Part shown: positions 19,498 through 24,439 of the stretch, in pieces | How positions within the stretch are numbered: position 1 is the first letter of the stretch | Layout of the letters: each line of letters opens with the position of its first letter | Position numbers and translations under genes: made by a program | Notes under the pieces: model-generated | Told to the model about the DNA's origin: nothing | Seen by the model: the letters and a program-made list of their open reading frames with translations, nothing else | Databases searched by the model: none | Assembly: GCA_963708075.1 (NCBI GenBank) | Contig: OY970194.1 | Location: 5,632,001 to 5,696,000 of the forward strand | Direction of reading: 5' to 3' | Length of the DNA: 64,000 bases | Source of the DNA: Sedimentisphaerales bacterium | GTDB taxonomy: Bacteria > Planctomycetota > Phycisphaerae > Sedimentisphaerales > Anaerobacaceae

Positions 19498-20151
19498 ATG
19501 AAAGTTGTGAGAGTGATCACGCTGGCAGTTTGTCTGCTGGCGGGAGCCGGCGCTGCCAACGCCGAGATTGTCCAAGTCAGTGACACCCTGAACTACACTG
19601 ACAATGGGCCCGTGCATGGTTTCTACTTCTGGGAACCGACCACCGTCGTGGATCATACGCCCTTCCATCGCCACGCGTGGGAGGACTGGGGATGGATGCA
19701 CGATGTCAGCGCTCTCGTGCCGGACGGCGCCACCGGCATCAGCTCCGCGACCCTCAACGTTCTGGCCTGGGGTGTAAACGACAGCGTGGGCGAGGTGGAT
19801 ATCATCTCCGCCAACGGCACACAGCTCGGGACGCTTACGAGCATCTCCAGCGAGCCGGTGCCTCCGGTTCCGCCCGAAATGTACACGACACCCGGCCAGC
19901 CCTACGGAGCCCTTACCGACTGGTCCATCACGTCGTTCGCGCTGCCTTCGAACGTCCTGCAGGCGCTGTTCCTGAACGGCGACCTCAACGTCTTCATGAA
20001 CATCGACGCAACCTTGAACGGCGATCGGGTCACGATCCGCAGCTCGACTCTCAAGGTGAACTACCTCACGGGCACGCCCGTTCCGGAGCCGGCGACGCTC
20101 GGTCTGCTCGGCCTGGGCGCCCTGGCCCTGCTGAAACGACGCCATGCGTAA
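19498..20151 (+). CDS. PEP-CTERM sorting-domain protein
   Basis: Signal peptide; C-terminus VPEPATLGLLGLGALALLKRRHA. Confidence 0.92.
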   Translation: MKVVRVITLAVCLLAGAGAANAEIVQVSDTLNYTDNGPVHGFYFWEPTTVVDHTPFHRHAWEDWGWMHDVSALVPDGATGISSATLNVLAWGVNDSVGEVDIISANGTQLGTLTSISSEPVPPVPPEMYTTPGQPYGALTDWSITSFALPSNVLQALFLNGDLNVFMNIDATLNGDRVTIRSSTLKVNYLTGTPVPEPATLGLLGLGALALLKRRHA

Positions 20152-20184
20152 CAGGCGTTGAGCTCAGGAAATTGCCTGCCCTTC

Positions 20185-20263
20185 GGGTGCCATGTCTACG
20201 CTTGCGTAGACATGTTCCACTCGATGGGCAAGGCATGCTTACGCGAGCGTAAGCATGGCACCC
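20185..20263. repeat. REPIN (family C)
   Basis: gggtgccatgtctacgcttgcgtagacatg ... catgcttacgcgagcgtaagcatggcaccc; inverted homologue at 27817-27894. Confidence 0.8.
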
Positions 20264-20296
20264 GCATGGGCGTGACGTGCGCGAGAGCCGGGACGT

Positions 20297-21194
20297 TCAT
20301 TTATGATCGGCCCGGCCCAGCCACGCCTCGGATTTGCATTGTTGCGTCCAGGCCCGCAGCGCCTGGAGCGATGCGGTCAGCGTGTCGATTCCGCCGCGCG
20401 CAGAAACTCCGACGGAGGGACTTCGAGAATGATCCGACCGTCAAAGTCATTGAGGATCAGAAGCCTGAGGAAGTCCTTCCAGGGGACAGTGTTATAGACG
20501 AGCGGCTGGTGGTCGTCGCCGCAGACGTCGTGGCAATGGACGTGCCCGATGCGCGGATCAGCGCCTGCGGCGGATGGAGCGGCCAGCCGTAGCGGCGAGC
20601 GTTCCAGTATGCATGCCCGAAGTCCCAGCACGCCACCGCGTCCGTCGCGATCGAGATCTCCAGCAACTCCTCGTATGTGTCGCCGATGCGCTGCCTCGGC
20701 TCATCGGCGTTCGGGCTGATCTGCAATTCCACCGCAACGGCGACATCGGGGACATTGTCGCGGCACCAATCGTGGGCCCACGTGAAGAATGAGATCGATT
20801 GGTCAAGGAGATACCGCCTGGGATCGGCGGATACGCCTGCCGCCGCGTGGATGTTGACGACCGTCGGGAATTGTTGCCGCCGGGCGGCCTCCGCAGCCAG
20901 AAGGAAGAATCGCTCGTGCAGGGCCCGGCAGGGATTCTCCTCCTCAGGCGAGAAGCACACCGGATTGAAGACGGTGCCCTCGGAGTAGGGATGCAGCGTC
21001 ACCTTCAGCCCCGCATCGACGCACCGGGCGATGTGGTCCTGCAGTACCGCCGTCTCGGTTTCCGGCCCGACCGGCGTCTCCACCACCTCCACGCCCAGTT
21101 CCCTCAGGAACGGCAAAATCTCCCGGCTGCCAAACAGCCGCTGGTAAACCTCATCGTGCGAAAACCCAATATCGAATTTCAGTCCTATCAGCAT
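20297..21194 (-). CDS. Sugar phosphate isomerase/epimerase (xylose-isomerase-like TIM barrel); two apparent frameshifts (~20553, ~20395)
   Basis: TLHPY, VNIHAA, VELQ, CWDFGHA then, in a shifted frame, IGHVHCHD...DHQPL...IILEV; TATAAT at 21206-21201 just upstream (near leaderless). Confidence 0.7.
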
Positions 21195-21261
21195 CGGCCC
21201 ATTATAGCGACCGTCCCCGCCAAACCAAGTGGCTGGCTCGTCCCCGCGACCCATCGCCGCA

Positions 21262-21918
21262 AATTGGCTTTGTTTCGCAGAACCGGCCCTGCCTGCTTCT
21301 GTCATTGCGAGCAGCACAGCGACGAAGCAATCTCAGGCGACTGCATGAATTGGCTTTGTTTTTCACACAGGCACTATCCGTGCTTTCTTTTATAACTCCT
21401 TTCCCCGTCAGCAGTTGCCCGTTGTCTGTACCTCCTGCAAATTGGCTTTGTTTCGCATTATCCTCTCTCGCTGCGCACGTGACATCGCCTCCCGTGACCC
21501 AGGTCTCCCATCTTCCCCACATTTGGCTTTGTTTCGCGCAGTAGGGTGAACGTCCCCGTTTGCTCCGGTGGTTGTGCAAGGCCACAGCCCGGAATTGGCT
21601 TTGTTTCGCGTCATCGTCTCTCCACGCGCATGGGACATTCGCGTTCCATGACCCAGATCCCCCATCTTGCCCAAGTTTGGCTTTGTTTCGCAAAGTCGGG
21701 TGAACGTCGCCGTTTGCTCCAGGTCCGCGTGCCGGGCCGCCGTCCGGAAATTGGCTTTGTCTCGCAGAATCGCCTGCTGAGTTCGCGGCGATCTCGTCTC
21801 GGCCATGTCTCCCATGCGCAATTGGCTTTGTTTCGCACAATTGATCCCTCGCCATCACGGCTCGTCGCCAGCGTGGCGACGAAGCCGTCTTGGCCGTCGA
21901 GATTGGCTTTGTTCCTGC
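21262..21918 (-). repeat. Interspaced repeat array: 9 copies of ~18-bp motif (A/G)(A/T)TTGGCTTTGTTTCGCA (minus: TGCGAAACAAAGCCAATT) with variable spacers
   Basis: Motif starts at 21262, 21348, 21440, 21521, 21593, 21675, 21749, 21820, 21901 (period 71-92 bp). Confidence 0.9.
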
Positions 21919-21947
21919 GTCTGGGTGATTTGAGGTTGCCTTCATGT

Positions 21948-22029
21948 CTCACGCAGAGACGCAGGAATGGACAGTGTGAAATCCGGTTCGGTCCCGCCCT
22001 TGTCGGCGCCTCCGCGTCTCTGCGCCTGA
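21948..22029. repeat. Inverted repeat/hairpin (cgcagagacgc family)
   Basis: tcacgcagagacgcagga ... tccgcgtctctgcgcctga. Confidence 0.6.
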
Positions 22030-22125
22030 ATTGGGTTATGGTCCAAGGCTCCACTGCCCTCTCGGGATGGCGGTGGCGAGAAGCCCAGACGTGCCGCTTG
22101 CGATTCTCTATTCAGTTGTGCAGCA

Positions 22126-22154
22126 ATCGTACAGGAACACCTGTTCTGTGTCAA
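22126..22154 (-). promoter_or_regulatory. Near-consensus sigma70 promoter facing the repeat array, with GAAC-N4-GTTC palindrome in its spacer
   Basis: Minus strand TTGACA-cagaacaggtgttcctg(17)-TACGAT. Confidence 0.75.
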
Positions 22155-22232
22155 GTGAAATACCAAGAATCTGGAACTTTATTTGGCTGCCCGGGGAAGA
22201 AGGAGCCGTCCTCAGGTGTTCTCCGGACACAA

Positions 22233-23282
22233 CTACGATGATGGTCCGGTTGGGCCCCTGCCCAGAATCGCCTCAAGCCTCTTGTGGAGGAGATTTCGCA
22301 GTTCCGTGATATTCTTGTACTCAGGAACATTGTGTACAGAAAGATCGAAGTGCAATCTTGTACCATGCTTTCGATAGAGAATTGGCCGTTTCTGCATTGC
22401 ATGGGCATAGCCAATTTCATAATAGACGTTCGGCCGCTCATAGGACAAATCTGCTATCAGCAATTCGCAGAGCGCTATTTCAGACAAGATCAGGTCGGTG
22501 ATTCTATCTTGATGTTGAATCTCATCGGCTCGGTAGGCGCGTACGCCGAACGAGACACACACCCGCTTGATGGTTTCATAGACATCTTCCAGTTCGGCGT
22601 TCTCAGGGTCCATCGGCATTAGGACAAAAGCAGTACCCTTCTTTATCTCCTGACGAAGCGGCGGTGACGGATTGTAAGAGACATAGTGGGTTGGTTGCCA
22701 CACTTGCCCGGAGAGAATCGTTCCAGGAAAATCCGTAGTATGCAGCGTGTAGGCCACGGAATTCTCTGCACGCCTTTCATAGTACTGTTGCATGAGTGGC
22801 TCTAAGCCTTCGAACGCAAGGTAAGCATCGTAGGCGTCGTCGCCATTAAGGGTAATAGACAAAAGTCCCGCTGACCCGGACCTTCCACTTCCCCCCGAGT
22901 AGAAACCCCCAAGACCAGATAGATTCTCTAACGCTATCTCAGCTTCTGTTTCTGGCAGTTGAACCATCTCAGACAGTCCCTTGGCGGTTATTGTCTCAAT
23001 GCCAGGTTGTTCCACTATGAGATCGCGAATCTTGAAGATCACCCGTTCAAGGTTCTTGAGTACAGGGGAATCGGGATCTACTTTCCAGATCCCGAGTATT
23101 GTCAGTTTCTTCCCGTTGAGCAGAAATCTGCTGTCGACCTTCTTAGGATCAAAGCCCCTCGGTAATTTGTCGCATAGCGTGACTTTTGCTATCTTTGGGT
23201 CAAACTGGGTGTCCTGATAAACAGCCTTGAGCCATGTAATGTCAGCCTCAGATAGCGCGTGGTCTTTGAATGACGAACTCAT
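22233..23282 (-). CDS. Protein with C-terminal TIR-like/nucleoside-2-deoxyribosyltransferase-like domain (possible defence effector)
   Basis: AFVLMPM...RADE...IADLSYERPNVYYEIGYAHA...HFDL; visibly AT-richer than flanks. Confidence 0.7.
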   Translation of the reverse strand: MSSSFKDHALSEADITWLKAVYQDTQFDPKIAKVTLCDKLPRGFDPKKVDSRFLLNGKKLTILGIWKVDPDSPVLKNLERVIFKIRDLIVEQPGIETITAKGLSEMVQLPETEAEIALENLSGLGGFYSGGSGRSGSAGLLSITLNGDDAYDAYLAFEGLEPLMQQYYERRAENSVAYTLHTTDFPGTILSGQVWQPTHYVSYNPSPPLRQEIKKGTAFVLMPMDPENAELEDVYETIKRVCVSFGVRAYRADEIQHQDRITDLILSEIALCELLIADLSYERPNVYYEIGYAHAMQKRPILYRKHGTRLHFDLSVHNVPEYKNITELRNLLHKRLEAILGRGPTGPSS

Positions 23283-23461
23283 GGTTTTTCACTTTCTTCT
23301 AAAGGGCCTTCATACAGACCTTAATCTTGACTCCCTTCAGGTCACTCTAACGCAGAGAACGCCCAAGGTCAATTTTCACCAGACGGATTGCGTGGACCTT
23401 CTAGGCCGGCAAATAAGGCAATGCGCGGAGCACGCCTTACCTGCTCTGGCCGATGCCGTAT

Positions 23462-24439
23462 TCAGTCGCTGCCGGGGAGGAGGTCGATGTCTTCGCGTTG
23501 GAGTAGTTGGATGATCTCGGCTTTGGTGGGCAGGGCCTCGATCACGCCGAACTTCGTGCAGACCAAGGCGCCGGCGGCGGAGGCGAACTTGACCGCTTCG
23601 CGCAGGTCGTGCTTGACCGCGCAATAGGCGGCCAGTGCGCCGGCGAAGGCGTCGCCGCTGCCGGTCTTGTCCACCAGGTCCACCCCGAAGGCGGGCACGT
23701 GGTCGGCGCCGCCGCGGTCCACTACCACGCATCCTCGCCGGCCCATCGTGATGACCGCGCAGCGGGCGCCGCGGGCCACGAGGTCCGAGCCGATGGATTT
23801 GGCCATGCGGATGTCGGTGGCCAGCGTGTCGGTGATTTCCGCCGCCTCGCCGAGGTTCGGGATCAGGACGTTGGCGGAGAAGTACTCGGGCGGCAGATCG
23901 ACGTTCTGCTGGCCCGCGTGTTCGAGCGGCCGGGCGGGATTGAGGATCACCGGCGTGCCGTGCAGCTCCGCGCAGCGAAGCGCCGCCACAATCGCCTCCT
24001 GCGGCAGGCACCCGTGAATCAGGCACACGTCCGCTTCGGCGATGCACTCCTCCGCCGTCTCGATGTCCGCCGGCTGCAGGGCGCTATTGGCCCCGATGTA
24101 GTGACAACTGGCGTTCTCGCCCTCGCAGTTGACCATCGTGACGATGACGCCCGTGCTCTTGGACTCGGCGAAGAACACGTACTCCGTGTCCACCTTGTAC
24201 TCATTGAGGCTCTTGAGGGCCATCTGGGCGAACCCGTCGCCGCCGACCTTGCTGACCAGGTGCACTTCGCAGCGGCACAGGGCGGTCTGAATGGCCTGGA
24301 TCGGGCCGGGACCGGCAATCGCGCAGGACAGGGCCGAGCCGCTGACCGCCTGCCCCGGGGCGGGAATCTGGCCGCACCGGAAGGCCATATCGACGTAGGT
24401 GCCGCCAATGACAACAACCTTCGGAATCCGTTCCGACAT
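23462..24439 (-). CDS. rbsK: Ribokinase (PfkB family)
   Basis: VVVIGG.VDM, KVGGDGF, STG, LNPA, IPNLGEA, VDKTGSGDAFAGALA. Confidence 0.85.
   Translation of the reverse strand: MSERIPKVVVIGGTYVDMAFRCGQIPAPGQAVSGSALSCAIAGPGPIQAIQTALCRCEVHLVSKVGGDGFAQMALKSLNEYKVDTEYVFFAESKSTGVIVTMVNCEGENASCHYIGANSALQPADIETAEECIAEADVCLIHGCLPQEAIVAALRCAELHGTPVILNPARPLEHAGQQNVDLPPEYFSANVLIPNLGEAAEITDTLATDIRMAKSIGSDLVARGARCAVITMGRRGCVVVDRGGADHVPAFGVDLVDKTGSGDAFAGALAAYCAVKHDLREAVKFASAAGALVCTKFGVIEALPTKAEIIQLLQREDIDLLPGSD

Follow-up and report, generated by a model that had tools for sequence, protein, structure and literature searches.

In the Neisseria intergenic mosaic elements (NIMEs), repeats of about 20 bp, called dRS3, flank RS units of 50-150 bp. 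The dRS3 repeat is an inverted repeat and serves as the integration site for phage or IS110-type recombinases. Bacterial interspersed mosaic elements (BIMEs) of enterobacteria and pseudomonads contain repetitive extragenic palindromes (REPs), which are imperfect palindromes of alternating orientation, and are usually found at the 3' ends of genes. The arrays described here are closest in architecture to these two systems. The example studied first lies in a stretch of 64,000 nucleotides (the window, whose numbering is used below) from a Sedimentisphaerales bacterium of the Planctomycetota (assembly GCA_963708075.1, contig OY970194.1, positions 5,632,001 to 5,696,000). It consists of nine minus-strand copies of the A-rich 18-nt motif TGCGAAACAAAGCCAATT, which span 21262-21918. 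The block belongs to an apparently undescribed family of promoter-led mosaic repeat arrays, of which many copies are dispersed in the genome.

As in the NIMEs, a short constant repeat alternates with variable units that fall into limited families, and the elements are intergenic, present in many copies and subject to fast turnover at individual loci. In contrast to dRS3, the 18-nt core is not inverted and always lies on one strand of its array. The promoter module is a further difference, and sequence and taxa are unrelated. Neither a link to phage or IS110-type integration nor a multi-copy gene consistently adjoining the arrays was seen. With BIMEs and REPs, the arrays share the intergenic mosaic of short dispersed repeats and linker motifs, with modules common to up to 17 arrays, and the genome contains REP-like modules (hairpin and CTAC) as well as 13 matches to Y1 transposases. 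Unlike BIMEs, the arrays have a single orientation, they are located upstream of genes, and their core is an unstructured A-rich 18-mer.

Full-text literature searches with sub-strings of the motif led to unrelated eukaryotic or primer contexts only, and searches for Planctomycetes repeats and small RNAs brought up nothing relevant. The Rhodopirellula-1 motif described by Weinberg et al. 2010 (PMC2864571) is a hairpin motif that differs from the one studied here.

The array in the window

The features of the array, all on the minus strand, are as follows.

21901-21918, minus strand: motif copy 1, promoter-proximal, degenerate, GCAGGAACAAAGCCAATC (repeat family D2)
21820-21837, minus strand: motif copy 2, TGCGAAACAAAGCCAATT (repeat family D2 and pattern match)
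21749-21766, minus strand: motif copy 3, TGCGAGACAAAGCCAATT (repeat family D2 and pattern match)
21675-21692, minus strand: motif copy 4, TGCGAAACAAAGCCAAAC (repeat family D2 and pattern match)
21593-21610, minus strand: motif copy 5 (repeat family D2 and pattern match)
21521-21538, minus strand: motif copy 6 (repeat family D2 and pattern match)
21440-21457, minus strand: motif copy 7 (repeat family D2 and pattern match)
21348-21365, minus strand: motif copy 8, degenerate, TGAAAAACAAAGCCAATT (repeat family D2 and pattern match)
21262-21279, minus strand: motif copy 9, last and perfect, with its 3' end 55 nt upstream of the TATAAT of the next gene
21440-21720, minus strand: two-unit tandem duplication, units 21440-21592 and 21593-21744 (repeat families D3 and D4)
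21298-21335, minus strand: dispersed repeat module of about 36 nt, GATTGCTTCGTCGCTGTGCTGCTCGCAATGAC, within the last spacer

An earlier note on this DNA, made from the sequence alone, had reported nine same-strand copies with start-to-start spacings of 86, 92, 81, 72, 82, 74, 71 and 81 nt. Copies and spacings are confirmed exactly, and the motif count is far above chance: with up to two mismatches, TTGGCTTTGTTTCGC matches eight times in the 64-kb window, compared to 0.11 expected matches, and none of 100 shuffles reaches eight. The note was also right that the array is non-coding. The open reading frames (ORFs) across it have no Pfam match, and none was picked by a codon-usage gene caller. The Rfam 15 covariance models gave no near-threshold match in window positions 20000-23500, at the typA array locus discussed below, or at 17 Terriglobia loci.

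Growth by two-unit duplication, likewise suggested in the note, is evident from the identity of the two units, which is 85% for 21485-21566 and 21639-21720, and 83% for 21440-21485 and 21593-21638. The motif core is identical in both copies, and the flanks have diverged. Six of the seven tested spacers of the window array have no match elsewhere, and the remaining one holds the dispersed 36-nt repeat GATTGCTTCGTCGCTGTGCTGCTCGCAATGAC. This repeat has 13 further copies in the genome, and copies with 91-97% identity are present in genomes across the genus. In a comparison of four DNA contig sets with the window stretch, just short fragments and repeat-driven joints were obtained. The summed contig depth of the GATTGCTTCGTCGCTGTGCTGCTCGCAATGAC repeat was about 19,000 in one wetland metagenome, and it was very high in sediment and wetland contigs. 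It is thus a very abundant dispersed repeat in these communities.

A family of 41 arrays in one genome

The genome is a single contig of 7.52 Mb with 60.4% G+C, and is 92.8% complete as judged by markers. The motif was counted genome-wide using a 15-nt core with up to two mismatches, and the reversed pattern served as a control. There are 296 copies, compared to none for the control, and 276 of them sit in 41 clusters of 2-13 copies, each of which is strictly one-stranded. A crude gene caller, which predicted 5362 genes covering 83% of the genome, places all 41 arrays in intergenic regions. The window array is neither unique nor a stand-alone system, but one of 41 arrays with unrelated neighbours.

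A count of conservation by position over all copies indicates that the 18-mer alone is conserved, together with a weak RYYST directly before it. The claim that the motif is conserved at the nucleotide level thus holds on a larger scale, since it is invariant over the 296 copies and across phyla. The core lacks dyad symmetry and is not palindromic. A possible ATTG/CAAT stem around it is conserved in its upstream half only to about 50%. Genome-wide, start-to-start spacings cover 33-375 nt, most often 87 or 34 nt, and the spacers 15-345 nt, with modal lengths of 72, 19, 62 and 48 nt. Recent tandem amplification is evident in arrays A05 and A13, where four to five units of 87 nt are nearly identical.

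Motif copies that stand alone, with an exact or near-exact sequence, were examined as possible genes for a complementary trans-RNA. This idea was rejected, since they are single units in intergenic DNA. In the 20.5 kb of arrays, G-quadruplex-type motifs (four runs of at least three G) occur eight times on the motif-sense strand and not at all on the other strand, a density per kb about 15 times the genome average, albeit based on small numbers.

A promoter module directed into the arrays

Upstream of the first motif copy of the window array, two further features are found.

22095-22164, minus strand: conserved promoter module, GGTATTTCAC-TTGACA (22154-22149)-N17-TACGAT (22131-22126)-N10-CAACTGAATAGAGAAT
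21919-22094, minus strand: leader between the module and the first motif copy, with a sequence that is not conserved between arrays

The promoter that the earlier note had pointed out (TTGACA-17-TACGAT, 22154-22126, minus strand) has a consensus score of 10/12 and belongs to a conserved, array-linked module. The module is a block of about 70 nt with the consensus GGATTTCRC-TTGACA-N17-TAnnAT-N~9-CAACTGAATAGCGAAT. In an nhmmer profile search, the window site was found with an E-value of 1.2e-16. Ten matches in the genome adjoin arrays, seven at E-values of at most 1.6e-9 and three weaker ones, and all ten are on the strand of the array, 79-296 nt upstream of its first core. The four other matches in the genome, which adjoin no array, all have E-values above 1. 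Among 80 loci from other genomes there are seven module copies, with same-strand cores 58-181 nt downstream and none upstream. In total, 17 of 17 array-linked matches are located upstream of the array and on the same strand, at distances of 58-296 nt.

The -35 and -10 hexamers are kept at a spacing of 17±1, and the sequence between them is variable, as would be expected for a promoter under selection. In an alignment of six array leaders, conservation stops after the block that ends in GAATAGCGAAT. A sigma-70-type promoter module is present upstream of a quarter of the arrays and directed into them. Its conservation upstream of 17 arrays, and nowhere else, argues for transcription into the array. 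A pattern search for the promoter in 150 genomes of the same class gave scattered single matches only.

We considered sigma-54 promoters on the opposite strand as an alternative. The sigma-54 consensus is TGGCACG-N4-TTGC. In TTGGCTTTGTTTCGCA, the GG and GC elements are one base too close to each other compared to this consensus, and such promoters would point away from the co-oriented gene. The candidate was therefore rejected.

Spacers and their modules

Of the 235 spacers in the genome, 105 belong to families common to several arrays. A family with a hairpin and (GCGGATT)n heptamer runs accounts for 30 spacers in 17 arrays, a 72-nt unit with GACCATCGCCAAGCTTCGCTTGACGCTGCCACCC for 18 spacers in eight arrays, and runs of the GTTTGAAGTGTGAAG type for 15 spacers in 12 arrays. 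A further family consists of REP-like hairpin and CTAC units. Sequence outside the arrays is matched by 146 spacers (more than three times by 104, more than 20 times by 77), and 89 match nothing. Short dispersed repeats, with up to about 280 copies outside arrays, make up about half of the spacers. Six non-palindromic modules were compared with the core for orientation. They are co-oriented with it in 16/16, 32/32, 13/15, 10/10, 12/12 and 5/5 cases, or 88 of 90 overall. Outside arrays, the same modules are found in either orientation relative to genes.

The suggestion of the earlier note that spacers drift fast while the motif is kept is thus only partly upheld. It agrees with the spacers of the window array, most of which lack matches, but not with the genome-wide picture of 146 matching spacers and fixed module orientation. 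A search of spacers against their own genome, also suggested there, brought up dispersed repeats and matches at about chance level. The latter are those of the spacers with one to three matches elsewhere; they are 15-30 nt long, mostly 16-18 nt, with E-values of 0.0003-0.05, and one is 42 nt at 86% identity.

The arrays resemble CRISPR loci in their promoter-bearing leader, after which a constant repeat alternates with variable inserts in a single orientation. However, the inserts are reused between arrays and come from the genome's own dispersed repeats, and the repeat has 18 nt, compared to about 23-50 nt, with near-constant spacers, in CRISPR. Together with spacers of 15-345 nt and the lack of a cas neighbour, this bears out the view in the note that the array is not CRISPR. 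Specifically, Pfam searches detected no Cas family in the vicinity of the window array, and neither a Cas family nor any constant partner among the 40 nearest downstream genes of the arrays; no genome-wide search for cas genes was made.

Several REP-like families, in which a GC-rich hairpin is followed by CTAC (e.g. GGTGGGCACAGCCCACCCTAC), are dispersed in the genome and occur in spacers of arrays A09, A17 and A18. The 13 matches to the Y1 transposase family PF01797 (RAYT-like) are in ORFs of 163-425 aa, and two of them lie 0.6-3.8 kb upstream of array 3.

Occurrence in other genomes

The motif is present in all 24 searched genomes of the same family, with anything between 3 and 692 copies in species of a single genus. 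A frequent variant in the family is GCGAAACGAAGCC. Outside this family, 16 genomes of the same order have the motif at chance level. The earlier note had proposed a genome-wide and cross-taxon search for the motif, which yielded, besides the 41 arrays, carriers in other phyla. A scan for the exact 18-mer found matches, often as short arrays, in metagenome-assembled genomes that the record titles assign to Acidobacteriota, Sumerlaeota or, with 40-65% G+C, Planctomycetota. The G+C content of the carriers ranges from 40 to 69%. Whole-genome counts in three Acidobacteriota genomes and one Sumerlaeota genome were 24-46, compared to 0-3 for the control. A match in Flavobacterium is at chance level.

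The Sumerlaeota units are about 62-69 nt long, and their spacers contain CAGGATG-like repeats. In the Terriglobia genome G044, the core is mostly single, has an A-tract ahead of it, and marks the 5' edge of non-coding elements that are repeated and 170-470 nt long. At these loci (L179-L198), two families of such elements begin with a core that has AAAAACAAAAAAT ahead of it, and both carry a TACACCC-N2-TGTCAAG block. In one of the families, AGCCAATT of the core pairs with a downstream AATTGGCT. The loci have no Rfam match.

Orientation, transcription and possible function

The next gene in the motif sense is co-oriented with the array in 30 of 41 cases, and the preceding gene in 21 of 41. Nine of the ten promoter-bearing arrays face a co-oriented gene. 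Given an origin at about 5.15 Mb and a terminus at about 1.4 Mb, 25 of 41 arrays have the motif sense on the lagging strand, and this replichore bias is not significant. The sense strand of the arrays is purine-loaded (A 26%, G 33%, C 25%, T 15%). In folding predictions, the unpaired probability of the core is 0.63 for the sense and 0.46 for the antisense strand, and it is higher for the sense strand in 33 of 33 arrays. A simple search for intrinsic terminators (hairpin and T-run) found none in, or up to 400 nt after, 33 of the 41 arrays, and none on the minus strand of the window. The defined transcript of about 850 nt that the earlier note had envisaged is therefore not supported, and read-through into the next gene is equally likely, because no terminator bounds such a transcript.

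A function or constraint at the level of RNA or transcription is favoured by the promoter, the co-orientation with genes, the polarity of the modules, the purine loading and the lack of a tie to replication. We therefore rank first, with a confidence that stays somewhat short of even, a transcribed, promoter-led mosaic element with a single-stranded A-rich core as the site for a factor. According to this model, the window array would be transcribed from about 22119 on the minus strand, to give either a non-coding RNA rich in purines or a long additional leader for the gene that follows. The A-rich core is predicted to stay single-stranded between GC-rich hairpin modules, and the exposed core could then act as a repeated binding or cleavage site for a trans-acting factor.

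Several observations weigh against this model. A recognisable promoter module is found at just 10-13 of the 41 arrays. Shuffled spacers also yield a value of 0.63 for the unpaired core, and its single-strandedness is thus a property of composition. The distribution is patchy, with the motif at chance level in 200 other genomes across the phylum. None of eight relatives examined has an array at the window locus, and a single core is present there in one of them (G013). The array upstream of typA, which has seven copies and a promoter module, is absent from all 18 other species compared, with the full 1.5 kb upstream available for ten of the 18. Homology to relatives sets in again about 200 nt ahead of the start codon of typA, where the native promoter and a conserved 5' untranslated region (UTR) are found, which places the array just upstream of this promoter. 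The arrays grow by tandem duplication and are gained or lost at single loci between species. Loss at individual loci and patchy spread fit selfish DNA, and argue against a conserved cis-regulatory role.

Candidates for the trans-acting factor also met with difficulties. CsrB/RsmZ, acting on CsrA, and CrcZ/CrcY, acting on Hfq-Crc, are protein-sponge RNAs with repeated single-stranded sites. The arrays would resemble them as promoter-driven non-coding RNAs with many short, exposed, purine- or A-rich sites between hairpins, and the Sumerlaeota spacers, with CAGGAUG-like repeats at the RNA level, add to the likeness. In contrast to sponge RNAs, there are 41 loci here instead of one to three, no terminator, and no conservation of array loci between species. 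A CsrA sponge, for which an excess of GGA sites (A(N)GGA) over composition would be expected, is disfavoured because GGA is not enriched in the arrays (621 occurrences, compared to 591±21 in shuffles) and AGGA is depleted (104, compared to 151±10). GGA repeats do occur in the (GCGGATT)n module family and in the CAGGATG-like spacers of Sumerlaeota. CsrA is encoded in the genome itself, but also in 15 of 16 relatives of the same order outside the array-bearing family, and it was not found in two of the four array-bearing genomes of other phyla, which may be incomplete. An Hfq sponge, in which Hfq would bind A-rich sites (ARN/AAnAAnAA), was rejected, since PF17209 has no match in the genome, whereas the same search was positive in five control genomes. 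Antitoxin RNAs of type III toxin-antitoxin systems (ToxI-like) consist of near-identical tandem repeats of about 34-45 nt, followed by a terminator and the toxin gene. Here, the spacers vary, 33 of the 41 arrays lack a terminator, and the downstream genes are unrelated, so that this candidate was rejected as well.

A bolder version of the transcribed-element model can be formulated, which we regard as rather unlikely. The arrays might represent a hitherto unrecognised class of non-coding RNA genes with dozens of loci per genome, which spread horizontally among Planctomycetota, Acidobacteriota and Sumerlaeota. Each promoter-driven RNA would combine an invariant, single-stranded 18-nt handle with interchangeable hairpin modules. 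A dedicated protein would bind or cut the handle, and the product could be a genome-wide RNA scaffold or sponge, or unit-length RNAs directed against the genome's own dispersed repeats.

Alternative explanations

The strongest rival of the transcribed-element model, possible although clearly less probable, is a selfish DNA mosaic similar to NIMEs and BIMEs. The 18-mer would then be a recognition or crossover site for a recombinase or transposase, or a hotspot for the exchange of units. Units of module and core would be copied between arrays, and the promoter and transcription would be incidental or serve the element only. The recurrence of spacer families in different arrays and the many spacer matches to dispersed repeats are readily accommodated by this explanation. 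The same applies to the wide range of copy numbers within one genus, the absence of arrays at orthologous loci, the recent tandem amplification in A05 and A13, the insertion sequence (IS) elements in or next to some arrays, and the patchy spread of an identical sequence across phyla, which suggests horizontal spread. However, no mobile partner has emerged. Of each of the 12 largest multi-copy gene families, at most two copies are located within 1 kb of a motif, unrelated and mostly housekeeping genes make up the 40 downstream neighbours, and the numbers of Y1/RAYT-type transposases do not track those of the motif. Moreover, in contrast to REPs and known recombination sites, the core is non-palindromic and lacks an inverted partner, and array orientation follows genes rather than replication. 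A dedicated, well-conserved promoter module is also hard to explain for a pure DNA parasite.

Alternatively, the cores could be an array of binding sites in duplex DNA upstream of native promoters, for a nucleoid-associated, silencing or activating protein, or as A-tracts similar to UP elements, that modulates or insulates the downstream gene. We consider this improbable. The cores are A-rich islands in GC-rich DNA, and the arrays are located upstream of genes: the typA array ends about 30 nt before a native -35 element that is conserved in relatives, and the last core in the window is 55 nt from a TATAAT. The single Terriglobia cores, with their preceding A-tract at the 5' edge of repeated non-coding elements, would also suit such a role. 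However, the spacings of 33-180 bp lack helical phasing, and the distance between the last core and the promoter varies (55 nt in the window, 33 nt to the typA -35 element, about 83 nt for array 0). Duplex binding requires neither the one-strand polarity of cores and modules nor the purine loading, and it does not account for a promoter that is directed through the array itself.

Finally, it is very improbable that the arrays follow a guide logic, similar to CRISPR or piRNA clusters, in which the transcript is cut at the cores and unit RNAs guide an effector against dispersed repeats or invaders: leader, promoter, single array orientation, fixed module orientation and spacer matches outside arrays would all fit, but the short core and the variable spacers define no fixed unit length, the few-match spacers are about chance level, many spacers are simple heptamer runs, and no cas-like or constant neighbour is found.

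The preservation of every letter of an 18-base sequence over hundreds of copies, at G+C contents of 40-69% and across at least three phyla, implies that a specific trans-acting factor reads it. Owing to the conserved promoter module, the RNA hypothesis is open to direct tests. Should the arrays be RNAs, they would constitute a large new family in a phylum in which hardly any regulatory RNAs have been characterised. Should they be DNA parasites, they would represent a new type of mosaic repeat that brings mobile promoters upstream of housekeeping genes such as typA, fusA-like, glyA and clpX and affects their expression. Either way, array regions should not be annotated as CRISPR arrays or ORFs.

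Genes next to the arrays

The window array is flanked by two co-oriented genes.

20457-21194, minus strand: downstream gene, 245 aa, no Pfam or NCBIfam family
22233-23282, minus strand: upstream gene, TIR-like, PADLOC PDLC00733 (TIR effector), E-value 1.1e-9

Orthologues of the downstream gene, with 70-76% nucleotide identity, are present in all but one of the 23 other genomes of the genus (22 of 23). Its own TATAAT, already mentioned in the earlier note, is present at 21206-21201, 6 nt upstream of the ATG at 21194. Because of this short distance, the mRNA is probably leaderless. In relatives, the orthologue is preceded by a region of about 60-100 nt with a different promoter-like site. The 5' region of the gene has therefore been remodelled in the genome studied here.

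The earlier note had considered the TIR/NDT-like neighbour as a possible effector. The gene product has 349 aa with the TIR-like domain at the C-terminus, and its N-terminal 200 residues match no family; the match to PF05014 (NDT) in Pfam, with an E-value of 0.0023, is under the cut-off. The gene is present in only one other genome of the genus, on a different contig than the orthologue of the downstream gene. It is thus an incidental accessory neighbour outside the element.

The 40 genes downstream of the arrays are unrelated and encode, among others, SHMT, EF-G-like, TypA/BipA, ClpX, RecQ, PBP2, RNase II/R-type and PurF-like proteins, two ECF sigma factors and three transposases. Transposases were also noticed in or near arrays. 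The L043 array (G000:C1:4778930-4780453) is split by an IS4-like transposase (DDE_Tnp_1 and DDE_Tnp_1_assoc) with 13 copies in the genome, and two of the six copies of an ISLre2-like (UPF0236) transposase are located within 260 nt of arrays.

Ahead of typA/bipA (L214:3370-3590), the region with TTGCAT-N17-TAGAAT and a 5' UTR of about 150 nt is 69-83% identical across species of the genus and has no Rfam match. The UTR opens with AACTGGGTTYAGAATCGGC, a sequence similar to the start region of the promoter module of the arrays. The conserved region could be an uncharacterised leader RNA.

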